Of a stretch of DNA of 64,000 nucleotides, positions 1 to 62,165 are shown in pieces. The translations under genes were made by a program, and so were the position numbers. The first letter of the stretch is position 1, and each line of letters begins with the position of its first letter. The notes beneath the pieces are model-generated. The model saw only the letters and a program-made list of their open reading frames with translations. It did not search any database and was not told the origin of the DNA. The DNA is from an uncultured bacterium (GTDB lineage Bacteria > Patescibacteriota > Minisyncoccia > Phycocordibacterales > UBA9973): assembly GCA_903894955.1 (NCBI GenBank), contig CAITSA010000001.1, forward strand, positions 3,769 through 67,768, read 5' to 3'.

Positions 1-2348
1 GCTTTTTGTAAATCTTCCCCAGCAAACCTAATAGCCAACTTGATAATATCTGCAGCCGTTCCCTGAATAGGTGCATTGGTCGCGGTTCGCTCCGCCATGT
101 TTTTTAAAAAAGGAATTCTAGATTTAATATTAGGGAAATATCTTCTTCGACCAAACAATGTTTCTGTATAAGAAAATTTTGTTGCATATTCTTTAATACT
201 ATCTAAATAATCTCGCAATCCAGAAAACTGATTAAAATAATTATCGTAAAATTTTTGCGCTTCTTCACGTGTCCCCCCAAGATTTTTTTTCAAAGCAGAA
301 ACTCCCATACCATAAATAATTCCAAAATTTATCACTTTTGCTTTACGGCGCATTTCACTATCCACTTGATCAAATGGAACATTAAAAACAAAAGAAGCAA
401 TTCCAGTATGAATATCTTTTTTTTCATAAAAAACTTTAGTCATCTTTTTATCTCCTGAGAGCATCGCTGCCACCCGTAATTCAATCTGACTATAATCAAA
501 AGCTACTAGCTTATAACCCTTGGGAGCAATAAAACCCCCTCGAATTCTTCTACCTAATTCTGTTTTGATTGGTAAATTTTGTAGATTTGGATCTTTGGAA
601 GAAAATCTCCCCGTGGTAGTGCCATTTTGTAAAAACTTAGCATGTAAACGACCATCGGTCGTCACCATTTTAGGGATAACATCAACATAAGTAGAAAGCA
701 ATTTCTGTAATTCTCGATAAAATAATATTTCTTTGATAATTAAATGATCTTCTTCTAATTCTTCTAACACTGAAACTTTAGTAGAAAAAGACCCACTAGC
801 ATTTTTCTTTACTTTATTTTTCCCTCCCAAACTTATCCCCATTTTACCAAAAATAACTTCTCCTAATTGTTTGGGTGAATTAATATTAAATTCTACGCCA
901 GCCTGTTTATATATTTTTTTAGTTAAAATATCTAATTCTACGTGATATTCACTTGATAATTTTTCAAAATATTTCTGATCTATTAAAATCCCGTGACTTT
1001 CCATCTCTTTAACTGTGGGAATAATAGGTTTTTCTATTTCTTCATATACTTTTTCTAAACTTGCCCCGCCCTGGCGTGGGTTTTTCTCTTTTAACTTTTT
1101 TAAAATATATTCATAAGCAATATCAAAAGAACCTTGGTCAGTTGATGAAGATGATATATTGGCAAACATTAAAATATCATTTAGTTGTGGATTAGAAATA
1201 TCAGAATTTATAATCCAAAGAGCAATACTAGCTTCTTGAAGTTTTTGTGGGGGAATTAAAGAAAGCAAAGTTTTCTCGGGTCCTCGGTTCTCCAGGTCCC
1301 CTACCCCGGCCAGACCAGCTCCAAAACTTGCTTTCTTTAATTCCCCTTCTGGGGCAGAACGGAGGGCATCTTCGGGAGATTTATGATTATCTCCAAAAAA
1401 GTTTTTCAAACGCCCAAACAAACTCCGAAATTCAAATTTAATAAAAATCTGTTCAATTTTTGTTAAATCTGCATTTTCCCAAAAAGTTTTTAAGGGTATT
1501 GCAAAATCTATCGGCGCATCGTTTCTGATGGTCGCTAAAATTTTAGAAAATAAAGCTTCTTCCTCATTGTCTTTTAATAATTTTACTATTCGATCAGAAA
1601 ATCCCAATTTTTTAAACTTTATTTCATAATTCGTACTTCGTAATTGTTTGTATATTTCTTCTATCGTTCCAAAGTTTACAATTAAACTTTCGGCTGTTTT
1701 TTCACCAATACCCTTGATGCCAATAATGTTATCTGAAGGATCTCCACGCAATCCTTTATAATCTGGTAAAAATTTTGGCTTGAAATGAAATCTCTCTACA
1801 ACCGCATCTTCGTCATATAAAATAGTGTCATTAATTCCTTTCTTTAAAGTATAAACTTGCACTTTTTTATCATCTACTAATTGCATTGTATCCATATCCC
1901 CAGAAGCAATAATTATATTTATACCCCCTCCGCCTTTGGCACCTCCCCCTATATAGGGGGAGGCTGGGCAGGGGTAAAATTGATACACTATCGTTCCCAA
2001 AATGTCATCTGCCTCAAACCCTGGGCTGTCATACATGGGAATATTAAAAGCTTCAAAAATCTGACGGGAATTTTTTAATTGCACAATAAGAGATTCTTCT
2101 GCTTTAGCCCGGCCAGCCTTGTACCCATCATAAGCTTCGTGTCGAAAAGTTTTTCCTGGTAAATCATAACAAGCCACAATATAATCTGGCTTTAAGTCAG
2201 TTACTATTTTCATCAACATACTAGAGAGTCCATAAAGAGCCCCGGTAGGTTCACCTTTGGAAGACATAAATTCCGGCAAGGCATGATAAGCACGGTGAAT
2301 TATAGCGTGAGCATCAAGTAATACTAAAGTTTTAATTTCTTTTTTCAT
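1..2348 (-). CDS. polA: DNA polymerase I, first ~782 codons (3' end runs off the left window edge)
   Basis: ATG at 2348-2346. My translation gives MKKEIKTLVLLDAHAIIHRAYHALP...GFEADDILGT...ASGDMDTMQLV (5'-nuclease domain). Near pos 1-100 it gives MAERTATNAPIQGTAADIIKLAI (polymerase motif) in the same frame (p mod 3 = 2). The ORF track omits it only because no stop lies inside the window. Confidence 0.9.
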   Translation of the reverse strand, partial: MKKEIKTLVLLDAHAIIHRAYHALPEFMSSKGEPTGALYGLSSMLMKIVTDLKPDYIVACYDLPGKTFRHEAYDGYKAGRAKAEESLIVQLKNSRQIFEAFNIPMYDSPGFEADDILGTIVYQFYPCPASPYIGGGAKGGGGINIIIASGDMDTMQLVDDKKVQVYTLKKGINDTILYDEDAVVERFHFKPKFLPDYKGLRGDPSDNIIGIKGIGEKTAESLIVNFGTIEEIYKQLRSTNYEIKFKKLGFSDRIVKLLKDNEEEALFSKILATIRNDAPIDFAIPLKTFWENADLTKIEQIFIKFEFRSLFGRLKNFFGDNHKSPEDALRSAPEGELKKASFGAGLAGVGDLENRGPEKTLLSLIPPQKLQEASIALWIINSDISNPQLNDILMFANISSSSTDQGSFDIAYEYILKKLKEKNPRQGGASLEKVYEEIEKPIIPTVKEMESHGILIDQKYFEKLSSEYHVELDILTKKIYKQAGVEFNINSPKQLGEVIFGKMGISLGGKNKVKKNASGSFSTKVSVLEELEEDHLIIKEILFYRELQKLLSTYVDVIPKMVTTDGRLHAKFLQNGTTTGRFSSKDPNLQNLPIKTELGRRIRGGFIAPKGYKLVAFDYSQIELRVAAMLSGDKKMTKVFYEKKDIHTGIASFVFNVPFDQVDSEMRRKAKVINFGIIYGMGVSALKKNLGGTREEAQKFYDNYFNQFSGLRDYLDSIKEYATKFSYTETLFGRRRYFPNIKSRIPFLKNMAERTATNAPIQGTAADIIKLAIRFAGEDLQK

Positions 2349-9859: not shown

Positions 9860-10762
9860 TTAAATTAATTTTAAGTCTTTCAGAATTTTTTCTAGTAAAA
9901 TCCTATTTTTGTCTTCAATAAAAGTAAGGGGTAGTCTGAAACTTTCCTCAATCTTCCCCATCATAGCTAAAGCTGTTTTCACTGGAATTGGATTAGATTC
10001 AACAAAATTTATGTTCATTAAAGGCAAAAGGTCGTAGTGTAATTTTCTTGCCTCTTCTAAATTACCTTTAAGTGCTAAGTGAATCATTTTGGAAAATAAT
10101 TTAGGAGCTTCGTTGCAAACAACTGAAATACATCCTTGTCCACCTAGGGCAATAAGTGGCAAGGCCACAGCATCATCTCCAGAAAATACAATAAAATCTT
10201 TTGGACCATTTTTCCTTATTTCATTAATTATTTCCATCATCTGATTCAAGGAACCCGAAGCTTCTTTGACTGCTTTTACTTCCGGTACCTCTCTCGCAAT
10301 TCTTACAATAGTTTCTGGAGATACATTAGATCCAGTTCTCCCCGGAACATTATAAACAATAATGGGCATATCTACCATTTTGGCAATTTCTTTAAAGTGA
10401 AGAACTAAACCATTAGGAGTTGGTTTGTTGTAATAAGGAGTTACGTGAAGTAGGGCATCAGCTCCAGCCTTTTTTGCTAAGCGAGATAAATGAACTGCTT
10501 TTTTTGTATCATTACTACCGGCTCCGGCAATGACCGGAACTTTTTTAGCAACTGTTTTCACCACTGTTTTTATCACCAGACTATATTCTTCTTCATTTAA
10601 GGTAGTTGCTTCTCCAGTAGTCCCCACAACCACTATCGCATCTACCCCACCTTCTAATTGAAAAAGAACTAACTTTTCCAAAGCAGGCAAATCTAGGTCT
10701 CCATTTTTTTTAAAAGGAGTAACGATAGCTGGAATAGAACCAAAAAATTTTATGTTCTTCAT
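9860..10762 (-). CDS. dapA: 4-hydroxy-tetrahydrodipicolinate synthase
   Basis: VVGTTGE, YNVPGRTG, KEASG (Schiff-base Lys context); 300 aa. Confidence 0.9.
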   Translation of the reverse strand: MKNIKFFGSIPAIVTPFKKNGDLDLPALEKLVLFQLEGGVDAIVVVGTTGEATTLNEEEYSLVIKTVVKTVAKKVPVIAGAGSNDTKKAVHLSRLAKKAGADALLHVTPYYNKPTPNGLVLHFKEIAKMVDMPIIVYNVPGRTGSNVSPETIVRIAREVPEVKAVKEASGSLNQMMEIINEIRKNGPKDFIVFSGDDAVALPLIALGGQGCISVVCNEAPKLFSKMIHLALKGNLEEARKLHYDLLPLMNINFVESNPIPVKTALAMMGKIEESFRLPLTFIEDKNRILLEKILKDLKLI

Positions 10763-12337: not shown

Positions 12338-12514
12338 AATTGGCAACAAAAAAAGCATTAATCTCTAAACAATCCTTTCGGAGCTGTGCTCCAAAAGTAA
12401 CAAAATATTATAGGATAGTTCCAGAAACTAATAAAAGTACCAAAACGTCCTATGCAAATTCATATAACCAAGGGCTGATTGCTTAGAGATTAATGCCTTT
12501 TTCAATTGTCAATT
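12338..12514. ncRNA. long-stem palindromic element (candidate structured RNA or elaborate terminator)
   Basis: 12348-12374 AAAAAAAGCATTAATCTCTAAACAATC is near-complementary to 12477-12502 GATTGCTTAGAGATTAATGCCTTTTT. About 100 nt between them carries two inner hairpins (GGAGCtgtGCTCC; ATAGGA...TCCTAT). Confidence 0.3.
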
Positions 12515-12561
12515 TTTCTTTCGCTTGATAAATTATACTACATACTTAATCAAGTAAATGC

Positions 12562-12597
12562 TATAATGTTGATAGCTATGTTGATACCCTGTTGATA
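12562..12597 (+). promoter_or_regulatory. TATAAT box followed by three helically phased TGTTGATA direct repeats upstream of ruvB
   Basis: TATAAT at 12562-12567. TGTTGATA at 12567-74, 12579-86 and 12590-97 (spacing 12 and 11 nt). The third reads TGTTGATAA, the complement of the DnaA-box-like TTATCAACA. Confidence 0.35.
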
Positions 12598-12661
12598 AAT
12601 GTACCACTTTTACAATATAGCATATAAGAAAATAAATGTCAACCCCTATCGTTTACGGACA

Positions 12662-14663: not shown

Positions 14664-14758
14664 TACTTTTAAAAACCGCACATAATTTTCTGCTGAAAAT
14701 TTGCTATGCTCGGCTCGCCAGCCTGCGCAATGCTTTTTAAAAGTATTACTTCATTTTT
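14651..14758 (+). repeat. arm-core-arm element, copy A (conserved hairpin CTCGGCTCGCCAGCCT at 14709-14724)
   Basis: 25-bp perfect inverted arms (14651-14675 / 14734-14758). The left arm contains the last codons and stop of ruvC. The 58-nt core shares its architecture with 25589, 49870 and 59225. Confidence 0.7.
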
Positions 14759-31838: not shown

Positions 31839-32285
31839 TTACTTATTATTCTCTTTTTGTTTACTTAAATCTAATATATCCAAACTCCAAGCTAAATCTC
31901 GTAACTTACTCCCGCTTAACTGGTCGCCTTCTTTTATCATTTGAACTTTATTTGTATTATTATTTTTTTCCCCGCCCGCATCGCCTTGCGAAGCATGGCG
32001 GGCAGGTATACGTTTTTTCCAGATGTAAAGTTTATTTTGGGTAAAATATTTAAAACTTGATTCTAGCATATTCACAAAAGGTTTATTATTTGGTTTATAA
32101 AAAGTAAGGGTTAGAGAAAATCCAGCCATGATTAAAATCGGGATTGCTCCCATCACGAGACCTAATAATTTATACAATACAAAACATAGGCCTGCTCCTC
32201 CTGCCAAGTAAATAAATTCCCTAAAAGTAAAAGGACCAAATATTTTATCTTCAATATCTAAAAATTGTGGAACTTTGAATTGCAT
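31839..32285 (-). CDS. PrgI/VirB3-like small membrane protein
   Basis: MQFKVPQFLDIEDKIFGPFTFREFIYLAGGAG followed by two TM helices; directly upstream of the VirB4 ORFs. Confidence 0.6.
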   Translation of the reverse strand: MQFKVPQFLDIEDKIFGPFTFREFIYLAGGAGLCFVLYKLLGLVMGAIPILIMAGFSLTLTFYKPNNKPFVNMLESSFKYFTQNKLYIWKKRIPARHASQGDAGGEKNNNTNKVQMIKEGDQLSGSKLRDLAWSLDILDLSKQKENNK

Positions 32286-36268: not shown

Positions 36269-38875
36269 CTAATTTGCTAACCATACTCCAGTAGCTTTTT
36301 TACATTCCGATTGTAATGTATTGGGTATTGGTAGGGTCGTAGGTAGTGTTGTTTGGTTAGGTAGTTGTATTGTGCAAGTCCCGAGTGGTTCTAATGGTCC
36401 CCAAGTTCCGGAATTTTGAGTACATTGGTATTTGGTTAAATCTGTGTCAATAACTCCATTGATGTACCTACAATTACCTAATGTTTCTGTGTCACCCACA
36501 TGAAGAGGTGTCTCGTTTAGGTTTCCAGGTAAGTCTCCTTTATAATCTGATGCTCTTGCATTAAAAATATTATTGCAATTAATTTCTGGGACCCACGATG
36601 CATCTTCCAAAGGGTTTCCGGGTATAAAACCACCACCAAGAGTAAAGCTGAAAGCAACAGATTTCAAAAGTGATGCAATAGTCACAGTTTTATATTGCAA
36701 TCCATTCTGTCCATTATTTGCTGGATTTACTAATGGTATCTCTGGATAGGTAACATTACTATTCCCAAAGTATGGATGAGAATACCCACCACTACTTGGC
36801 AAACTACAGAATAATGCTTCTTCTGTTTTACCATTATCTACGGTTGGTCCACTAGGGCTAGGGTTTTTCCAGGTAGCACTTGGCCCACCAGGATTACTCC
36901 AACCCTTGGCGGCTCTTTCTGCTGGGCAAGAAAGGGGATTGTTTATATCCAACAAACTAACAAAATTGTTATACATGTCTTTTACTTCAGATAATTTATT
37001 TCGTGTATTTTCTATGGTATTTGTATTAGACAAGTCAGTGCTTGCTCCTTGATATTGTTTCCAGATTGATACTAGAGTTTGTTCTTCCGCTGAACCTGTG
37101 TCTGGTTGGGTATTTGTAGGAAATTTAAGATCCAAATTTGTTTTAATTGCTTGCAGTCTTGCTAGAGCAGTATTTTTGGCCATTCTATCACTATTTAGTT
37201 GGTCCATTCCTTGAGACAATTTTGTAATACTGTTTACTGCATCTATATATGCTAATGAACTTGGAAGTTCAGGCATCATTTTATTATCTATCCAAGCCTT
37301 GAAAAATTTCATAGCGGAAGTTAATTCTTTTATAATTGAATCTACTTCGTCTTGGTTGGTACCACCAGTAACAATACTCAAAAAACCACTTGCTTTTGTT
37401 TGAACATCTGCTCGTGCCTTGGTAACTTCTGCGTCAACTCTGTCTTTTAGTCCTATAACATCTGGACCGGGAATACATTCATCAAGTTTCTGTGCCTCGG
37501 GCCAAACTTTACTATAGTATTGATATATGCCAGGATTTACAGGATCCTCGTTATACATTAATCTGATTTCTGTGTTTAAACTGTTTATCCCTTGGTTTAC
37601 TGTGTTCTTAAAGTCACTTAAGACAATTGGTTGGTCTGGACCCCCATTCCAATTATCAGTTGAGTTGGTGCCTGTGCCTGCGTCCAATGGGCTACCAACA
37701 GTTTGGCCATTATAACTCCAATCATCTGTTACGGGGGCAGGATTTATTGTGCTTGAGAGCGCACTTAAGCCTTTATCTAAGTAGTGACTTATCAGAGCAT
37801 CAAAGACAGCAGACAAACTATTGCCTACTGCTCCATCAAGGGCTGTTGTTAAGAACGGTGAATTTATAGCAGTCATTATAGAATTAGCAGCAACTGAACC
37901 CGGAGTAGTGTTTTCAAAGCCACTTGTCCCATCTTTTTTTGGTGGACAAGTATTTGCGTCTGTCCAGGTTTTTTTTGTTGCATCATAGTCGGCATTCCAT
38001 TTTGCTAGGTTGGCGCTGTCTTTCGTTGCATCACCTGTTAATGCTGGTTGGGGTTCTTTTTGGTAAAATGCAGCATCATCAAAACTTGGTTGTGTAAATT
38101 CATTTGTACCATTATTAAATTTCGGATTGGTTGCACATTTTTGTGGAGATAAAAAGCCCGCTCCTTGCGCAAGGAGACCTTTGACTCCTTCGGCAGCGGA
38201 TTGTTGAGTGCCTCTAACATCATTGGCAAGTTGTTGAGTTGCTATCATTTGAAATCCTAATACATTATTTTGTGGATATTGAGTGTTAGTTAGAAATCCA
38301 TTCCACCCTCCATAACTAAAGTCATTTCTATAACTGTTAAGTTGTGCTGAATTCATAACATTACTTAAAGTATATGTGGCATTATTTTCTTGGGTAGTTT
38401 TATAAAGATTGATTGCATCTAGCGCGAATTGCTTGCCAAAAGGATAGAGTAGGTTGTTATAGCCATAGGTATTTACTATGTTTTTTAATTGAGATTTAGC
38501 TATATCACCAAAGAAAGACTGAGGATTTGTTAAGAAAAGTGGGGATCCATGAAAATCAGAATTTATCCAGTTTATAGTAGACTTGGTCATTTCTGCCAAA
38601 ACTTTTTTTGCCACTGCTTTAGCTAATTCTTGAAGTATTTTTTGGGCTTGATCTTGATATTTTAGTGCGAGATCTTTTAAACTTGTAGCTAATAATTCCA
38701 GCGAACTTGCTGCGATTGAGGAAGTTGAAAAATCTCCTATTGGGTTAGTTCCAACATCTCCTGCCCCCCAAACAGCGTATCCTGTTTTTGGGAAAGACAA
38801 CAAAACAGAGGGTAATAATATCAAAATAATTAAAAGACCAGAGATGAATTTTTTTGTTTTATTACTGACTGTCAT
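36269..38875 (-). CDS. large secreted protein, unknown function
   Basis: 868 aa; N-terminal signal/anchor (LLIILILLPSVLLSFPKTGYA); Asn/Thr/Gly-rich. Confidence 0.7.
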   Translation of the reverse strand: MTVSNKTKKFISGLLIILILLPSVLLSFPKTGYAVWGAGDVGTNPIGDFSTSSIAASSLELLATSLKDLALKYQDQAQKILQELAKAVAKKVLAEMTKSTINWINSDFHGSPLFLTNPQSFFGDIAKSQLKNIVNTYGYNNLLYPFGKQFALDAINLYKTTQENNATYTLSNVMNSAQLNSYRNDFSYGGWNGFLTNTQYPQNNVLGFQMIATQQLANDVRGTQQSAAEGVKGLLAQGAGFLSPQKCATNPKFNNGTNEFTQPSFDDAAFYQKEPQPALTGDATKDSANLAKWNADYDATKKTWTDANTCPPKKDGTSGFENTTPGSVAANSIMTAINSPFLTTALDGAVGNSLSAVFDALISHYLDKGLSALSSTINPAPVTDDWSYNGQTVGSPLDAGTGTNSTDNWNGGPDQPIVLSDFKNTVNQGINSLNTEIRLMYNEDPVNPGIYQYYSKVWPEAQKLDECIPGPDVIGLKDRVDAEVTKARADVQTKASGFLSIVTGGTNQDEVDSIIKELTSAMKFFKAWIDNKMMPELPSSLAYIDAVNSITKLSQGMDQLNSDRMAKNTALARLQAIKTNLDLKFPTNTQPDTGSAEEQTLVSIWKQYQGASTDLSNTNTIENTRNKLSEVKDMYNNFVSLLDINNPLSCPAERAAKGWSNPGGPSATWKNPSPSGPTVDNGKTEEALFCSLPSSGGYSHPYFGNSNVTYPEIPLVNPANNGQNGLQYKTVTIASLLKSVAFSFTLGGGFIPGNPLEDASWVPEINCNNIFNARASDYKGDLPGNLNETPLHVGDTETLGNCRYINGVIDTDLTKYQCTQNSGTWGPLEPLGTCTIQLPNQTTLPTTLPIPNTLQSECKKATGVWLAN

Positions 38876-39924: not shown

Positions 39925-40728
39925 CTAGCTTTTAGAGAGGGCAATCCAGCCAGAAAGAGTTAAATCTTCTGCTCTTTTGTTTTTTAAGGTCTCTGAAGTA
40001 GAAATTCCTCTATTTTTTAGATTTGAGGAGAGCTTTTTTCTTTTATGAGCAAAGCCAGCTTTGACTATTCCCCAAAATCTTTCCTCATCAATGTTGTTTT
40101 CCTTAAAAGTCTTTCGAGAAATATTTTTTATGGCAATAATAGCTGAATCAACCTTGGGGCTGGGTGAAAAATATCTTTTATCAACTTTTGCAATAATTTT
40201 TGGCTCCCCGTAAGCTTTGACTGAAATAGACAGAATACTTTCTTTATTATCACGAGCCACTATTCTTTTTGCTACTTCGTGTTGCACCATTAGAATCATC
40301 CTTTCTGGTTGTGCTTCTATTGTTAAAAATTTTTTTAAAATTGCACCAGTAATATTATAAGGAATATTGGCGATGATTTTATAGTGAACCCCTCTAGCCT
40401 TCCTTGTCATGGGAATATTTTCTCCCCCTGCTAAGGGGGAGATTAAGAGGGGGTCGAATTTTAAAATATCATCATTTATTAAAATTAATTTTTTTTCTAA
40501 AATTTCTTTTTCAAATTTTGTTTTTAAAAATTCAAAAAGTTCACGGTCTTTTTCTACTGCGATGACGAGATTGGATTGCTCTAAAAGTTTTTCTGTGAGT
40601 GCTCCTTTTCCTGGTCCAATTTCTAAAATTACATCATCTTTTTTTATTTCCCCAACTTCCGCAATTTTCTTTAAAGCAATTTCTGACTTTAAAAAATTTT
40701 GCCCCAGTGATTTTTTAGCTCTGTGCAT
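39925..40728 (-). CDS. rsmA: 16S rRNA (adenine1518/1519-N6)-dimethyltransferase
   Basis: Start moved to ATG 40728 (MHRAKKSLGQNFL). EIGPGKGALT SAM motif; ANIPYNITG. Confidence 0.85.
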   Translation of the reverse strand: MHRAKKSLGQNFLKSEIALKKIAEVGEIKKDDVILEIGPGKGALTEKLLEQSNLVIAVEKDRELFEFLKTKFEKEILEKKLILINDDILKFDPLLISPLAGGENIPMTRKARGVHYKIIANIPYNITGAILKKFLTIEAQPERMILMVQHEVAKRIVARDNKESILSISVKAYGEPKIIAKVDKRYFSPSPKVDSAIIAIKNISRKTFKENNIDEERFWGIVKAGFAHKRKKLSSNLKNRGISTSETLKNKRAEDLTLSGWIALSKS

Positions 40729-43490: not shown

Positions 43491-45560
43491 TTATAAGTAA
43501 ATTGTTTTTATTCCACTGGCCTCACCTTCTTTTTTTAAAATATCAGCTGGAATATCTGAAATAAATTCTGATGGTGTATTTATCTGGCGTGATCCAAAAA
43601 TAGTCCGGAAATTTGCAAATGACAAAAATAATTTTTCTTTAGCGCGAGTGAGTGCCACATAAAAAAGTCTGCGTTCTTCCTCGTCGTCTTCATTTGCTTT
43701 ATTTTCATTTTGTCTTTCGTGTGGGAAAAGTCCATCTTCTAATCCTGTAATAAAAACATATTTAAATTCAAGTCCTTTTGAAGCATGGACGGTCATAAGT
43801 TTTATAGCGTTTACTTTTTCTTTTTTTTCTTGATTAATCATTAATGAATCTTGATCTGATGCTAGTGACGCATCTTCTAAAAGTTTTTCTACTCCTGTTC
43901 CACTTGTTAGATTGTCATATTTGAGTGCAAGGGTGGCGAGCTCTTTGATGTTTTCTAATCTCTCCATATCTTCTTCGGTTCCAGCAGAAAGTTCTTGTTC
44001 AATCCCGGACTTTTTAACTACAAATTTTATTATCTCGCTTGTCTTTAAACCTTGTTTTTGTTCATCTTGTCTGGATATTTTTTCTTTTATCTCTTCGAGT
44101 ATTTTATAAAAATTATTAATTTTTATTTGCATTTTTATCGGCAAGGTTTCTCTTTGTCCAGAAAAAATTTTCATTAAAGTTACTTTTCCGATGCCTCGTG
44201 CTGGGAAATTTATTATTCTTTTTATATCAGATAAACTATCGGGGTTTAGAGCTGCTCGTAAATAGGCTAAAGTATCTTTAATTTCTTTTCTTTCAAAAAA
44301 TTTAACACCTAAAACTTGATATGGGATATTATACCGAAGCATCGCTTCTTCCAAAACTCTGGACTGAAAATTTGCACGATAAAGAATTGCTATTTCAAAC
44401 AAATGAGAGGATGTTACTTTTGTGGGGTCGCTGTCTGTGCCTACTGGCACAGCGCTGCCTCTCGGCCCGTCGGCCTGTGAGACACCCCTCAAAAGCAAAT
44501 CCTCTCCTTTGTCTAGTATTTCTAGAATTTTTGTTGCGACGAATTCTCCTTCGTCTGTTTCGTCGAGTGCTTCATATAAGCCTATCTTCTCCCCTTCCAC
44601 ATTGTTTGTAAATAAATTTTTATCTGGTCTATATTTATTTTTCTTGATTACCACATTGGCTGCTTCTAAAATATTTTTTGTAGATCTGTAATTTTGTTCC
44701 AGTAAAATTATTTTTGCATTTGGATAATCTTTTTCAAAATTTAAAATATTTTTCAAATTTGCTCCGCGCCAAGAATAGATATTTTGATCTGCATCACCCA
44801 CCACGCAAATATTTCTATTAGTATTTGTTAGTAATTTAGACATCAAATACTGCACTTCATTTGTGTCTTGATATTCATCGATGTGTATATATTCCCATCT
44901 TTCTTGATAAATTTTTCTTATCTCTTTGTTTTCTTTTAATAATTTTGTAGTCTTTAACAACAGATCATCAAAATCTAATGCATTCTCTTTTGTCTTTTGT
45001 TTTTCATATAAATTCCAAACTTGAGCCACAATTTTCCCCAAAGAATTTCCTCCTCCCTCTTCCCTTTCTACATAATCCGCTAAATATACAAACTTTCCTT
45101 TTTCTCGGGAAATTATATTTTTGATTTTTTTTGGATCATATTGTTTCGGGTCTAAGCTAAGCTCTTTTAAGATATTCTTTATCAGAGTGGTGGTATCATT
45201 TTCGTCTAAAATAGTAAAATATTTTGTTAAACCTAAAAGTTGTGCATTTTCTTTTATAATATAGACTCCCAAAGAGTGGAAGGTGCTGACGAAAGGAATT
45301 TTATCTTGTCCTTTGGCATTTTTTTGGATTTCTCCGATAATTCTCTCGCGCATTTCTTTAGCTGCTTTGTTGGTGAACGTGACCGCTAAAATTTTATCAG
45401 GCGAAACTCCATTTTTTATTAGATTGACAATTCGATGCGTAATAGTCTTTGTTTTTCCCGCTCCCGCTCCAGCCACAATCAAAAGTGGACCCTTCACATG
45501 AAGTGCTGCCTCTTTTTGCTCCTTATTGAGACCTTTTAAATGCTGTTCGTCTATAGCCAC
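43491..45560 (-). CDS. pcrA: UvrD/PcrA-family SF1 DNA helicase
   Basis: AGAGAGKTKTITHR, IHIDEYQDTN, VGDADQNIYSWRGA, TVHASKGLEF. Confidence 0.9.
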   Translation of the reverse strand: MAIDEQHLKGLNKEQKEAALHVKGPLLIVAGAGAGKTKTITHRIVNLIKNGVSPDKILAVTFTNKAAKEMRERIIGEIQKNAKGQDKIPFVSTFHSLGVYIIKENAQLLGLTKYFTILDENDTTTLIKNILKELSLDPKQYDPKKIKNIISREKGKFVYLADYVEREEGGGNSLGKIVAQVWNLYEKQKTKENALDFDDLLLKTTKLLKENKEIRKIYQERWEYIHIDEYQDTNEVQYLMSKLLTNTNRNICVVGDADQNIYSWRGANLKNILNFEKDYPNAKIILLEQNYRSTKNILEAANVVIKKNKYRPDKNLFTNNVEGEKIGLYEALDETDEGEFVATKILEILDKGEDLLLRGVSQADGPRGSAVPVGTDSDPTKVTSSHLFEIAILYRANFQSRVLEEAMLRYNIPYQVLGVKFFERKEIKDTLAYLRAALNPDSLSDIKRIINFPARGIGKVTLMKIFSGQRETLPIKMQIKINNFYKILEEIKEKISRQDEQKQGLKTSEIIKFVVKKSGIEQELSAGTEEDMERLENIKELATLALKYDNLTSGTGVEKLLEDASLASDQDSLMINQEKKEKVNAIKLMTVHASKGLEFKYVFITGLEDGLFPHERQNENKANEDDEEERRLFYVALTRAKEKLFLSFANFRTIFGSRQINTPSEFISDIPADILKKEGEASGIKTIYL

Positions 45561-56625: not shown

Positions 56626-57441
56626 TTAAATCTCTAGCCAAATTGGACAGTGGTCCGAGCCGTAATAATCAGACAACATGCCCGTGGCTTTTATCCCGAC
56701 GCTTTTAGGTCGGGACCCCGACAACGAAGTTCGTCGGGGCTTTAGATCTTTGAAAAAAATTTCATCGGCAAAAAAATAATCAAGACGCCAGCCGACATTT
56801 CTATCTCTAGCGCGAGTTTTGATATCCCAATATGTATAAGCGCCAATTTTTTCTGGATAAAACTTTCTAAATACATCAATGAATTTATTTTTTATTACTT
56901 TATCAATCCAAGCACGTTCTATGGGCAAGAAACCAGTATTTTCAACGTTAGCTTTCGGGCGGGCAAGGTCGATTTCTTCATGGGCTGTATTTATATCTCC
57001 ACAAAAAATTACATTTTCGCCATTCTTTCGCAACTTCAGGATAAATTTTAGAAAAGCTTCGTAAAATTCTAATTTATATTTTAATCTATGTGGTCCTTGG
57101 CCACCATTTGGAAAATATCCAGTAATGATGGTGCAATTTTTTAATTTTACACCAAGCAATCTTCCCTCGTTGTCTAATTTTTTTACACCCATACCATAAA
57201 AAACTTCTCTCGGTTTTTCTTTAGTGTAAATTGCTACCCCACTGTATCCTTTCTTAATTTTTGGATGTGAAAAGTAAGAATAATATCCAGAAATATTTCG
57301 TACTTCGGGAGGCAATTGTTCTGGAGTGGCTTTTGTTTCTTGTAGACATAAAATATCTGGTCTGTTTTTAAATAGGGGAATAAAAAATCCTTGTTTTGCT
57401 GTTGCCCGAAGCCCGTTGGTGTTCCAAGAAATTATTTTCAT
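56626..57441 (-). CDS. xthA: exodeoxyribonuclease III
   Basis: [31 protein letters not shown]. Confidence 0.9.
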   Translation of the reverse strand: [271 protein letters not shown]

Positions 57442-59224: not shown

Positions 59225-59356
59225 AAGATTTAAAACTCTTTCTTGGCATACTTTTTATAAAGCAATCTATCTGGCGAAGCTTCGCCAGCGAACTGCTCGG
59301 CTCGTCAGCCTGCGCAAGGCTTTCAAAAAAGTACGCCTGCAACAAGTTTTTAAATC
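59225..59356 (+). repeat. arm-core-arm element, copy D (conserved hairpin CTCGGCTCGTCAGCCT at 59296-59311)
   Basis: Long imperfect arms (AGATTTAAAACT..GGCATACTTTTTATAAAGC / GCTTTCAAAAAAGTACGCC..AAGTTTTTAAATCT). The core resembles copy A. Confidence 0.65.
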
Positions 59357-60014: not shown

Positions 60015-62165
60015 ATGGGCGAATATATGCAAAAAAAAGAATATAGTGTAGAGATTGGCGGAAAAACATTAACGGCTATTTTTACTGATTTAGCTGAACA
60101 AGCTCATGGTTCAGTAATATTAAAATATGGAGAAACAATTGTTCTGGCCACTGTTTGTATGTCTCATGACAAACAAAAAGGTTTAGGATATTTTAATTTG
60201 ACAGTTGATTATGTAGAAAAATTTTATGCAGCTGGAAAAATTTTAGGTTCACGTTTTGTTAGACGAGAAGGGAGACCTTCAGAAGAAGCTATCCTTGCCA
60301 GTCGAGTTATCGACAGGACTCTTCGTCCACTTTTTGATCAATCGATTCGTCACGCGGTGCAAGTCATTGTGACGGTTCTTTCGGTAGACGACAATGATCC
60401 GACGATTTTAGCAGTTAATGCAGCCTCTCTCGCTTTAGCTGTTTCGAATATTCCATGGAATGGTCCTATTGGTTGTGTGCGTATTGGTAAATACGATAAC
60501 GATAATCTAATCATCAATCCAGCCCAGTCTTTGCGTATAGATGAGGATACTCAATATAAGTTTGACCTAACTGTTTGCGGGAAAGATGGAAATATAAATA
60601 TGATTGAAGCCTCTGCCCGTCAGAGCAAGGAAGAAGAATTAGAAGAAGCCTTAGAAAAGGCAAGTATTGAAATAACTAAACTAGAAAATTTTCAAAAGAA
60701 AATAGTGGGAGAAATAGGTAAAGAAAAAAGAATTATTGAGAAAGAAATAATTTCTCCAGAATCAGTGGCTTTATTTAATGAAAATATTTTACCCAAAATG
60801 GAGGAAGCACTTTTTGGCGAAGCGGGCCTGCCTGCGCAGTCAGGCAAAAAGAAAATAGATGATTTGCATAATATGTGGAATAAAATGGTGCAGGATAAAT
60901 TCAAAGACCGAGACGATTTCTTCTTAGAAGATAATTTGTTTGATGATGCAGAAAATGAAATCTTGCACAAAAAAGCGATAGCAGAAAACAAAAGAGCTGA
61001 TGGAAGAAAGATGGACGAACTTCGTGATTTATATGCTCAAGCCGGAGGATTTTCGAGTAAATTACATGGTTCGGGAATTTTTTATCGTGGAGGAACACAT
61101 GTGCTTTCAGTCCTCACCTTAGGTGGTCCTGAAGATAGAAATTTAGTTGATGGCTTACAGTTGAAAGTAGAGAAAAGATTTATGCATCATTATAATTTTC
61201 CTCCTTATTCTGGAGGAGAAGTAGGAAGATCAGGTTTTACTAATCGCCGAGAAATTGGACATGGAGCCCTCGCCGAAAAAGCTCTAGCGATGGTTCTGCC
61301 TTCAGTTTCAGAATTTCCATATACCATGAGAATTGTTTCTGAATCAATGGCTTCTAATGGTTCTACTTCACAAGCAAGTATTTGCGCTTCTATTCTCGCC
61401 TTGATGGATGGCGGAGTGCCAATTAAAGCACCTGTCGCTGGCATAGCGATGGGCTTGATGATTGAAGATGATGCAAAATACAAAATTTTGACTGACATTC
61501 AAGGACCCGAAGATCATCATGGTGATATGGATTTCAAAATTGCTGGAACGAGAATTGGTGTTACCGCTATCCAGCTTGATGTAAAAGTAGAAGGAGTATC
61601 GATAAAAATATTAGGGGAAGCAATGAGACAAGGAAAAATTGCACGGGTAGTTATTATTGATAGACTAGAAAAAGAAATTCCAAAATCCCGAGACAATATT
61701 TCTCCAAACGCACCAAAGATTTTAATTATTAAAATTAATCCTGAAAAAATTGGTTTAGTGATTGGTGGTGGAGGAAAAACAATCAAAGAAATTAAAGAAA
61801 AATCTGGCGCGGAAATAACCATTGAAGATGACGGAACTGTTTATTTGACCGGAAAAGATGGATCAGCTGAAAAAGCAAAAGAATTAGTTGAAGAGATGAC
61901 TCATGAATTTAAAGTGGGGGAAATGTTGAAAGGTGAGGTTATGAAAATTCTTGATTTTGGAGCTTTTGTGGCCTTGAATCCTTTCACGGATGGAATGGTG
62001 CATATTTCTGAAATAGCACCATTTCGCGTCGAGAGAGTATCAGATATAATAAAGGAAGGGATGATTGTTCCAGTGAAAGTTATCTCTATTGATAAAGAAA
62101 GAGGGAAAATTGGTCTATCTATTAAAGAAGCGGATAAAGATTTTTTTAATGGCGGAAAAAAATAA
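60015..62165 (+). CDS. pnp: polyribonucleotide nucleotidyltransferase (PNPase)
   Basis: Two RNase PH domains; KH (VIGGGGKTIKEI); S1 (GEVMKILDFGAFVAL). Follows rpsO as usual. Confidence 0.9.
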   Translation: MGEYMQKKEYSVEIGGKTLTAIFTDLAEQAHGSVILKYGETIVLATVCMSHDKQKGLGYFNLTVDYVEKFYAAGKILGSRFVRREGRPSEEAILASRVIDRTLRPLFDQSIRHAVQVIVTVLSVDDNDPTILAVNAASLALAVSNIPWNGPIGCVRIGKYDNDNLIINPAQSLRIDEDTQYKFDLTVCGKDGNINMIEASARQSKEEELEEALEKASIEITKLENFQKKIVGEIGKEKRIIEKEIISPESVALFNENILPKMEEALFGEAGLPAQSGKKKIDDLHNMWNKMVQDKFKDRDDFFLEDNLFDDAENEILHKKAIAENKRADGRKMDELRDLYAQAGGFSSKLHGSGIFYRGGTHVLSVLTLGGPEDRNLVDGLQLKVEKRFMHHYNFPPYSGGEVGRSGFTNRREIGHGALAEKALAMVLPSVSEFPYTMRIVSESMASNGSTSQASICASILALMDGGVPIKAPVAGIAMGLMIEDDAKYKILTDIQGPEDHHGDMDFKIAGTRIGVTAIQLDVKVEGVSIKILGEAMRQGKIARVVIIDRLEKEIPKSRDNISPNAPKILIIKINPEKIGLVIGGGGKTIKEIKEKSGAEITIEDDGTVYLTGKDGSAEKAKELVEEMTHEFKVGEMLKGEVMKILDFGAFVALNPFTDGMVHISEIAPFRVERVSDIIKEGMIVPVKVISIDKERGKIGLSIKEADKDFFNGGKK

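Follow-up and report, generated by a model that had tools for sequence, protein, structure and literature searches.

Two GC-rich palindromes that lie in frame inside polA, the gene for DNA polymerase I, and rsmA (ksgA), the gene for 16S rRNA dimethyladenosine transferase, of an uncultured bacterium are probably translated members of a dispersed family of BoxC/triplex-type repeats, with units of about 35-75 nt. The stretch that holds them, here called the window, comprises 64 kb of an AT-rich genome (34% GC, 30-39% along its length) of the Nomurabacteria/Paceibacterota in the candidate phyla radiation (CPR). Essential enzymes of these bacteria (DNA polymerase I, RsmA and TsaE) have been invaded repeatedly at the same permissive loops by several palindrome families, and a UvrD-like helicase, polynucleotide phosphorylase (PNPase) and others apparently as well.

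The original prediction, made from the window alone, had pointed out a perfect 22-nt palindrome in polA and a sibling in rsmA (TCTCCCCCT-GCTA-AGGGGGAGA, 40421-40442), and both were found at these positions. Each forms part of a larger element:

1-2348, minus strand: polA, identified by translation; residues 1-782 lie in the window and the gene runs off its left end
1922-1976, minus strand: complete polA element, 55 nt, sense TACCCCTGCCCAG-CCTCCCCCT-ATAT-AGGGGGAGG-TGCCAAAGGC-GGAGGGGGTA
1942-1963, both strands alike: inner perfect palindrome with pyrimidine arm CCTCCCCCT, loop ATAT and purine arm AGGGGGAGG
1941-1932, minus strand: spacer mini-hairpin TGCCAAAGGC
1931-1923, minus strand: third arm GGAGGGGGT, a mirror repeat of the purine arm
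1964-1976, minus strand: 5' outer arm TACCCCTGCCCAG (sense), predicted to pair with the third arm into a nested hairpin
39925-40728, minus strand: rsmA/ksgA, 267 aa
40421-40454, plus strand, antisense to rsmA: core of the rsmA element, TCTCCCCCT-GCTA-AGGGGGAGA-TTA-AGAGGGGGT
40386-40456: extended rsmA element, 71 nt, translated as residues 92-115
40386-40394: rsmA outer arm GAACCCCTC
40400-40415: rsmA side hairpin TTCC-TTGTCATG-GGAA

Read in frame, the polA element covers residues ~125-142, and its nested hairpin (1922-1976) has a predicted folding energy of -35.7 kcal/mol. The translation given earlier also holds, with residues 124-143 reading FYPCPASPYIGGGAKGGGGI between EADD (112-115) and SGDMD (149-153). 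RsmA residues 92-115, which cover the second element, are DPLLISPLAGGENIPMTRKARGVH; the insert-encoded peptides are YPCPASPYIGGGAKGGGG (polA) and SPLAGGENIPMTR. Homologues of the polA product carry PF02739, PF01367 and PF00476, and the rsmA product is 100% identical to the homologue P0121, which bears PF00398.

For comparison, 80 genomic loci (~1.18 Mb) were retrieved with the PolA N-terminus. Like the best PolA and RsmA homologues, they stem from metagenome-assembled genomes of Candidatus Nomurabacteria, Paceibacterota and Patescibacteria. The pattern CTCCCCCT-N4-AGGGGGAG has exactly two sites in the window (at up to 2 mismatches) and none in 100 dinucleotide shuffles. Twelve further copies of the core occur in the related loci, within polA, tsaE-like genes, other open reading frames (ORFs) and intergenic DNA, for example upstream of a yebC-like gene (L015:1837-1884). 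The core is decoded in at least three frames and both orientations (SPYIGGG, SPLSRGR, SPLAGGE, LPLRRGS). Two of the loci, L040 and L003, match the polA element at ~98% identity over ~45 nt in BLAST and at 87-90% over the 63-nt loop region, compared with 73-79% in the flanks. Between species, the identity of the element is 78-94% (10 pairs; 84-94% without L045, a copy with a nested insert), that of flanking polA DNA 70-79% and that of third codon positions 41-51%. The nucleotide sequence of the element is held more constant than neutral sites, and the excess reflects either constraint at the nucleotide level or recent spread.

The additional copies, the several frames and the identity at the DNA level bear out the earlier view that the element is dispersed and did not arise by convergence between proteins; with copies in related loci the motif is not confined to the two sites of the window. 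Alignments of polA and rsmA orthologues revealed that most lack the insert of the window; the same peptide encoded by non-palindromic codons was not seen among them. Selection on the protein for a flexible loop, with the palindrome as a by-product of codon choice, would account for the Pro/Gly-rich loop peptides that both inserts encode. The same DNA is nevertheless read in at least three frames and both orientations into unrelated peptides, it also occurs between genes, as at L015:1837-1884, its identity goes beyond what a peptide needs, and the insert is modelled by AlphaFold at very low confidence (see below). We regard this explanation as highly improbable.

The wider set of GC-rich perfect hairpins points to dispersal as well. 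Only 7 (stem of at least 7, loop of at most 12) lie in the window; the related loci hold 128, as compared with 6-13 in shuffles (~10-20-fold), and their direction is strongly biased, with 57 running from pyrimidine to purine and a single one from purine to pyrimidine. Copies are relatively enriched between genes (42% intergenic vs 19% of positions), and 32 of 55 pyrimidine-to-purine hairpins of the related loci lie inside long ORFs. Indels of 31 nt and 86 nt that match parts of the unit distinguish L086 from L094; units are gained and lost between these 93-95% identical genomes. A scan of the window with Rfam at the gathering threshold returned four tRNAs and no match for the palindromic units, which are therefore not a catalogued RNA family.

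Insertion loops in PolA and RsmA

Across 81 loci the polA loop is empty in 58, where a short VEKYKKDKNINIII is encoded by A/T-rich DNA of no predicted structure (energy 0), and filled in 23 by 3 to 21 additional codons. Every one of the 23 inserts is a multiple of three, contains no stop codon and leaves both flanks in one frame. The inserts fold at -3.4 to -45 kcal/mol, all at or below -9 except the 3-codon insert of L037 (-3.4). Six or more palindrome families, unrelated to one another, are represented:

Family A: core of the type CCTCCCCCT, the family of the window
Family B: core of the type CCCTCTCC
Family C: core AATCCCGTTAGAGGC...
Family D: core TTTCCGCCAGAGGCGGA/TCCGCC...
Family E: core GACCCACGCC..GCGGGGC
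Family F: core CCGCCCGCGGGTGG

Since the entry points differ slightly (after KKD, after KN or after I), the inserts represent independent events. The closest relative of the window, L001 (90% amino-acid identity), carries family E in this loop and not family A. At L045:~10380-10460 a second pyrimidine-to-purine hairpin, CCCCTCC-AAAAAT-AGGGGAGG, is apparently nested in the polA loop and replaces the purine arm of family A; elements may thus insert into one another.

A position in a surface loop agrees with an AlphaFold model of the PolA 5'-nuclease domain (mean predicted local distance difference test score, pLDDT, 88.8). There the insert is predicted to fall in a disordered loop, with residues 128-140 below a pLDDT of 50, leading from a helix (113-123) to a strand (143-148).

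RsmA shows the same behaviour in the loop that joins DIL.F to YKIIANI, which 47 of 120 homologues keep short. Family A occupies it in 14 (DPLLISPLAGGE...), and at least five families occur overall, all of them within called proteins; shorter forms of the rsmA insert, such as DPLLISPLAGGEKYK, are also found. Like the polA loop, that of rsmA is thus a hot spot for insertions. Two of its families sit elsewhere in the window too:

GLAGVGD..RGPEK: the element at polA 1250-1346
LRGVSQADGPRG..DSDP: the element of the UvrD-like helicase gene, 44405-44506

Because the intragenic copies are in frame and stop-free, at places where orthologues have few residues, we interpret them as translated passengers in permissive surface loops. 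They provide a natural map of insertion-tolerant loops, and they bear on how proteins are annotated and aligned, on phylogenetic markers and probably on where assemblies break. GC-rich hairpins inside genes of an AT-rich genome also resemble the byp elements of Magnusiomyces mitochondria, and this likeness might suggest that the inserts are untranslated, being bypassed or, like small intervening sequences, removed from the mRNA. Bypassed or spliced elements would escape the constraint on frame and stop codons, whereas all 81 polA loci keep the frame, the 23 inserts are stop-free and the RsmA inserts behave likewise, so that we hold out very little prospect for this alternative.

The best 120 PolA matches (P0001-P0120) are all partial, also where the contig measures 55-109 kb: they have 224-549 aa, against ~820-900 aa for complete ORFs of the loci. 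Breaks in the assemblies thus seem to be frequent within polA, close to the linker with its many repeats.

Three-arm architecture and relation to triplex motifs

Beyond the original prediction lie the mirrored third purine arm, the likeness to BoxC and triplex motifs and the association with DUF559 genes. Aligned copies share a layout of pyrimidine arm, loop, purine arm, TG with a variable mini-hairpin or a 3-nt loop, and second purine arm. The last is the mirror image of the first purine arm, a relation kept across nine non-symmetric variants, and the three arms co-vary across variants. An exact mirror 7-mer within 55 nt accompanies 69 of 433 hairpin sides, compared with 6 for direct repeats and 4 for a control region. 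A finder for three blocks, pyrimidine, purine and mirrored purine (Y-R-R'), gave 235 matches in 1.5 Mb and none in shuffles. On the minus-strand polA core, CCTCCCCCT-atat-AGGGGGAGG-tgccaaaggc-GGAGGGGGT, it returned a stem of 9, a loop of 4, a second loop of 10 and 1 mismatch. The rsmA core has the geometry 9/4/9/3/9 (C-rich stem, loop, G-rich stem, loop, mirror G-rich stem), with its single third-arm mismatch at the terminal T; the ATTAAGAGGGGGT tail of this unit reappears in the GC-rich contigs L170, L161 and L177. Where the single third-arm mismatch is not terminal, it is typically T for A (GGTGGGGG, GGGTGAGG), a change allowed by the purine triplex motif (T.A-T triple rules). These substitutions and the co-variation of the mirror arm with the purine arm lend indirect support to the idea that single strands of the units may fold as Y-R-R' triplexes.

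The same three-arm design characterizes the BoxC/PIT/TMECO elements (Bergler 1992; Hoyne & Maher 2000; Holder et al. 2015, PMC4666352), which are likewise G/C-rich, multi-copy, widespread and marked by local indels. For the TMECO pattern, CCCTCNCCC-N3-6-GGGNGAGGG-N3-GGGNGAGGG, 3610 occurrences were counted across 262 genomes of proteobacteria; as an isolated strand the motif forms a triplex in vitro, as followed by circular dichroism, nuclear magnetic resonance and melting (PMC4666352). Its 23 copies in E. coli K-12 are all intergenic and associated with local genome rearrangement or variability, and a transposase or integrase near them was looked for and none was found (PMC4666352). According to work cited there, PIT elements act neither as promoters nor as terminators and leave RNA polymerase and conjugation unaffected, and a polymerase block in vitro has no counterpart in vivo. 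Under the published rule for class II intrastrand triplexes (stems of 6-15 nt, at most 1 mismatch, loops of 1-6 nt), the rsmA copy agrees in both blocks and loops, and its 9/4/9/3/9 layout equals the published geometry.

The window copies differ from TMECO in several respects. Their arm is CCTCCCCCT rather than CCCTCNCCC, they lie inside genes and are translated while E. coli copies are always intergenic, and the polA copy has a 10-nt mini-hairpin as second loop and an additional outer arm. Moreover, units of the kind studied here flank DUF559 genes, whereas the published work reports no linked mobility gene. The TMECO consensus has no match in the window; exact matches were found in the Nomurabacteria locus L023, in L174 and L198 and at the E. 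coli ycjD locus, the last with a variable-loop pattern after a fixed 4-nt loop had missed it. The window copies share the structural class of TMECO but form a sequence family of their own; belonging structurally to a known class, the element is not categorically new. The comparison connects the CPR inserts with the BoxC/triplex motifs of enterobacteria and cyanobacteria, reported as strictly intergenic in E. coli.

Two other structures were considered and rejected. Intrinsic terminators do not fit, as the T-run precedes the hairpin rather than following it, and G-quadruplexes do not fit variants such as AGGGGGAA/AAGGGGGT, which hold only two G-runs.

The architecture also bears on a local origin by replication errors (template switching or hairpin-primed synthesis) which, together with mutational bias, would produce convergent palindromes of C-runs and G-runs. 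Perfect short-loop palindromes are a classic product of template switching, and a deletion between repeated G-runs (31 nt) was observed. Such errors fit poorly with 35-45 nt that include spacer, mini-hairpin and third arm and are near-identical at unrelated loci and in unrelated genomes, with the co-variation of three arms, or with empty polA loops that are A/T-rich and offer no quasi-palindrome to start from. We consider a local origin very unlikely.

A more serious competitor, although still unlikely, holds that the units are cis-elements beneficial to the host and kept by selection, such as sites of translational pausing between folding units, determinants of mRNA stability or signals for replication, recombination or uptake. 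Synonymous sites in the flanks are indeed less conserved than the nucleotides of the element, both purine arms (AGGGGGAGG and GGAGGGGGT) look like Shine-Dalgarno sequences, inserts occur at domain or loop boundaries, and the E. coli motif is tied to local genome variability (PMC4666352). A host function is harder to reconcile with the patchy distribution (no insert in 58 of 81 polA loci and 47 of 120 RsmA homologues), with a different family at the same loop in the closest relative L001, with at least six unrelated palindrome families sharing one loop, and with the occurrence in both orientations and the relative enrichment between genes (42% vs 19%). The negative results for PIT elements cited in PMC4666352 point the same way. 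No rival explanation accounts at once for the patchy distribution, for non-palindromic parts that copies have in common and for the constraint on frame.

Units around DUF559 nuclease genes

The 80 polA loci contain four DUF559 genes, matching PF04480 (E = 8e-37) and NCBIfam YcjD (NF007294), and units lie on both sides of all four. The spacer and third arm of the polA unit share their layout with units that flank DUF559 genes, and the polA unit matches those downstream of such genes. YcjD-like proteins are predicted PD-(D/E)xK nucleases related to Vsr (PMC1189080). The only solved relative is an uncharacterised "endonuclease-like protein" of Neisseria, crystallised as 3HRL.

A metagenome scan with the DUF559 proteins yielded 65 loci, 64 of which were scored with the three-block finder. 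Pyrimidine-to-purine hairpins reach 3.4 per kb within 250 nt of a DUF559 gene and 0.18 elsewhere; for triplex motifs the values are 3.86 and 0.12 per kb (~30-fold). A triplex motif lies near the DUF559 gene in 53 of the 64 loci, and on both sides in 32. Arm sequences vary with the nuclease clade (CCTCCCCT, CCCTCCCCT, CCCCTCTC, CCCCGCC, CCCCTCCC, CTCCCCT-aa). The upstream unit ends ~20 nt before the ATG of the DUF559 gene and is followed by TATAAT, and downstream units are usually inverted. In L015 nuclease and units form a cassette of ~650 nt, at a site where L003, L004 and L034 have a spacer of ~10-26 nt; in other genomes the cassette is found elsewhere, for example after ruvB in L070. The cassette is an insertion, found in some genomes and missing from others at intergenic sites that are conserved in other respects. 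Gene order around the cassette of L059 differs from that of the window.

Cultured bacteria show the association as well. Of 10 diverse ones, 9 have units beside their DUF559 gene (Synechocystis, N. gonorrhoeae, Deinococcus, Sphingomonas, Azospirillum, Sinorhizobium, Klebsiella, Photobacterium and Methylobacterium), several of these loci with tandem unit arrays. Arrays beside DUF559 genes in an activated-sludge contig (L136), Photobacterium (L209) and N. gonorrhoeae (L203) have periods of about 80, 150 and 281 nt and up to 15 copies; CRISPR-like arrays were considered and rejected, the spacers being identical and the arrays hence tandem repeats. E. coli K-12 has a perfect TMECO 167 nt beyond the ycjD stop codon, a proximity for which we estimate a chance of ~0.003 given 23 copies in 4.6 Mb. 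The fabI-ycjD interval (L200; 1351030-1351410) holds, besides this TMECO/BoxC copy downstream of ycjD, a truncated second 3' end of ycjD (GAATATTCTCCAGCACCGTCTCC twice), which by its sequence looks like a remnant of a tandem DUF559 unit. BoxC was first described next to envM (fabI).

We tentatively propose, with slightly less than even confidence, that DUF559/YcjD-like nucleases are cognate to BoxC/PIT/TM repeats, the two forming selfish modules of a REP-RAYT-like or homing kind in hosts as far apart as CPR bacteria, E. coli, Neisseria, Deinococcus and cyanobacteria. Such modules would have the short units as non-autonomous offspring, carried in compact CPR genomes as translated surface loops of essential proteins. 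In the explanation that we favour for the palindromes as a whole, the units would be selfish or mobile DNA, and the nuclease, with its Vsr fold and PD-(D/E)xK motif, might recognise the folded or duplex unit and drive its copying, by analogy with REP/REPIN and RAYT or with a homing endonuclease and its site. Selection would spare only insertions in tolerant loops that are stop-free and a multiple of three in length, a survival made easier because all-pyrimidine and all-purine arms cannot encode stop codons. That survivors are so often intragenic may be due to the very short intergenic spacers of this compact genome.

Related systems share parts of this picture. Short palindromic repeats in many dispersed copies are known from repetitive extragenic palindromes (REPs) and their composites BIME and REPIN, with the associated RAYT enzyme (Bertels & Rainey 2011, PMC3116915); there too a single-copy enzyme gene lies between inverted copies of its own repeat, and the repeat co-varies with the enzyme clade. 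Both the arrangement and the co-variation are found around DUF559 genes, and mobilisation might follow the same principle. The flanked gene, however, encodes a Vsr-like PD-(D/E)xK nuclease (PF04480) and not an IS200/IS605-like Y1 (HUH) transposase, and REPs are extragenic and lack a mirrored third arm. In-frame palindromic inserts in housekeeping genes were described as Rickettsia palindromic elements (RPEs; Ogata et al. 2000; reviewed in PMC10969869), likewise in unrelated genes of a small AT-rich genome, translated, tolerated at surface positions and belonging to several coexisting families. The in-frame palindromes of polA, rsmA and tsaE-like genes, with orthologues that lack them, show the same features. 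RPEs measure ~100-150 bp and are restricted to Rickettsia, whereas the units here measure ~35-75 nt (55 and 71 nt for the window elements), have homopyrimidine and homopurine arms and also occur outside their lineage; RPEs have no known nuclease partner.

Very short GC-rich hairpin elements are also represented by the mobile GC clusters and double-hairpin elements of fungal mitochondria and by small dispersed repeats of cyanobacteria. Such elements spread in AT-rich genomes, sometimes in frame within coding sequence, as in yeast var1. They belong to other hosts and have other sequences, and neither a triplex-type third arm nor an associated nuclease gene is known for them.

Several points weigh against the proposed link and against a mobile nature of the units. 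The association with DUF559 is a correlation, which would equally arise if the nuclease gene merely homed into pre-existing units, or if nuclease and units accumulated in the same safe intergenic spots. A tblastn search found no DUF559 gene in the 64-kb window, and the window has just two copies of the family, which are non-identical and give no sign of recent activity. No intragenic insertion event was caught at nucleotide resolution. Orthologues, at ~75% DNA identity, are too diverged to place boundaries or target-site duplications of the intragenic copies; a search for such duplications at the polA loop showed TA and TAAA(T) repeats at some junctions, which could equally belong to the palindrome. 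Conservation above neutral could mean that the units have a host function. The polA copy conforms to the block rule of class II triplexes but not to the loop rule, its second loop having 10 nt instead of 1-6 nt. Finally, pattern matches in 54 contigs of a viral collection, only some with the full architecture, lack a chance baseline and serve only to place the sequence family outside CPR; one alone of these contigs has a DUF559 gene, 2.6 kb away.

A full-text literature search returned no link of DUF559 or ycjD to repeats and no description of such inserts in CPR, which is not proof of novelty; Holder et al. 2015 (PMC4666352) mentions neither DUF559 nor ycjD. The translated copies in essential genes, the occurrence in CPR and, above all, the DUF559 link appear to be undescribed in the literature searched. 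The association, strong, specific to the nuclease clade and taking in E. coli ycjD and the 3HRL protein, makes DUF559 a candidate for the enzyme behind the spread of these repeats and their instability. If the proposal is true, a widespread domain that so far has no known function would gain one, and a repeat class unexplained since 1992 would gain a mechanism of dissemination.

Further repeats in the window and related loci

Besides the two elements, polA carries two other palindromes. The larger, at 1250-1346 on the minus strand (residues ~335-366), is an imperfect palindrome of 97 nt with a GC-rich centre and AT-rich outer arms of 24 nt (GGGGAATTAAAGAAAGCAAGTTTT...). It is translated as ...GAGLAGVGDLENRGPEK... 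in the linker that follows the 5'-nuclease domain. In 15 loci BLAST located this element, on either strand, at the position in polA that it has here; it also occurs elsewhere in L057, L027, L034 and L016, and its peptide fills the RsmA loop of other species (P0143, P0154 and P0225). The smaller palindrome, CCCACGCC-AG-GGCGGGG at 1064-1080, encodes PRQGGAS (residues 424-430) and has copies in L015, L053 (two), L049 (two) and L008; DPRQGGASE occupies the 5'-nuclease loop of the PolA homologue P0008.

A GC-rich palindromic element of 102 nt (44405-44506, -38 kcal/mol) lies in the gene of a UvrD/PcrA-like helicase (43491-45560, minus strand) and is translated as LLLRGVSQADGPRGSAVPVGTDSDPTKV. It falls where the first UvrD_C match skips (after residue 280, with the C-domain match starting at 386). 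A copy with 92% identity is present at L049:15720-15782, and the peptide also appears in the RsmA loop of P0237. The hairpin CCTGCCCGCC...GCGGGCGGG at 31971-32006, GC-rich and folding at -23.6 kcal/mol, is translated as IPARHASQGDAGGE within a PrgI-family ORF (31839-32285, minus strand), with copies of 93-98% identity in L024 and L048. Three other sites have no further copies in the comparison loci: two adjacent GC-rich hairpins in an Exo_endo_phos nuclease gene (56694-56740), CTCCTTGC/GCAAGGAG in an 868-aa ORF without Pfam match (38161-38176), and a GC-rich patch of the PNPase gene that follows the first matches to RNase PH and RNase_PH_C (60798-60847).

Between genes, 59255-59335 is a GC-rich stretch with the perfect palindrome CTGGCGAAG/CTTCGCCAG and a partial second copy in the window at 14707-14736. 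Copies of 89-98% identity occur in L026, L072, L042, L001, L024 and L036, and a permissive Rfam search of this stretch gave no meaningful match. The stretch thus belongs to a further repeat family or else encodes an RNA that has not been catalogued. The intergenic region at ~12340-12600 (...GCATTAATCTCTAAACAATCCTTTCGGGGCTG...) is conserved in many Nomurabacteria loci and borders the insertion site of the DUF559 cassette in other genomes. It matches no Rfam family even at E = 1 and may be an unrecognised structured RNA gene.

Two more motifs emerged from the related loci. The 18-nt perfect palindrome CCTGCCTGC/GCAGGCAGG, present in L006, L020 (two), L045, L047 and L077 (two) and in a partial form in L051 (TGCCTGCC/GGCAGGCA), is a different dispersed family. 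A hairpin with the conserved apex ..TAGG-caaga-CCTA.. was found at L005:10145, L022:4209, L044:8103, L059:15508, L063:6886, L045:7151 and L050:8013. Its stems differ between genomes yet stay complementary, and from this pattern it looks like a conserved structured RNA.

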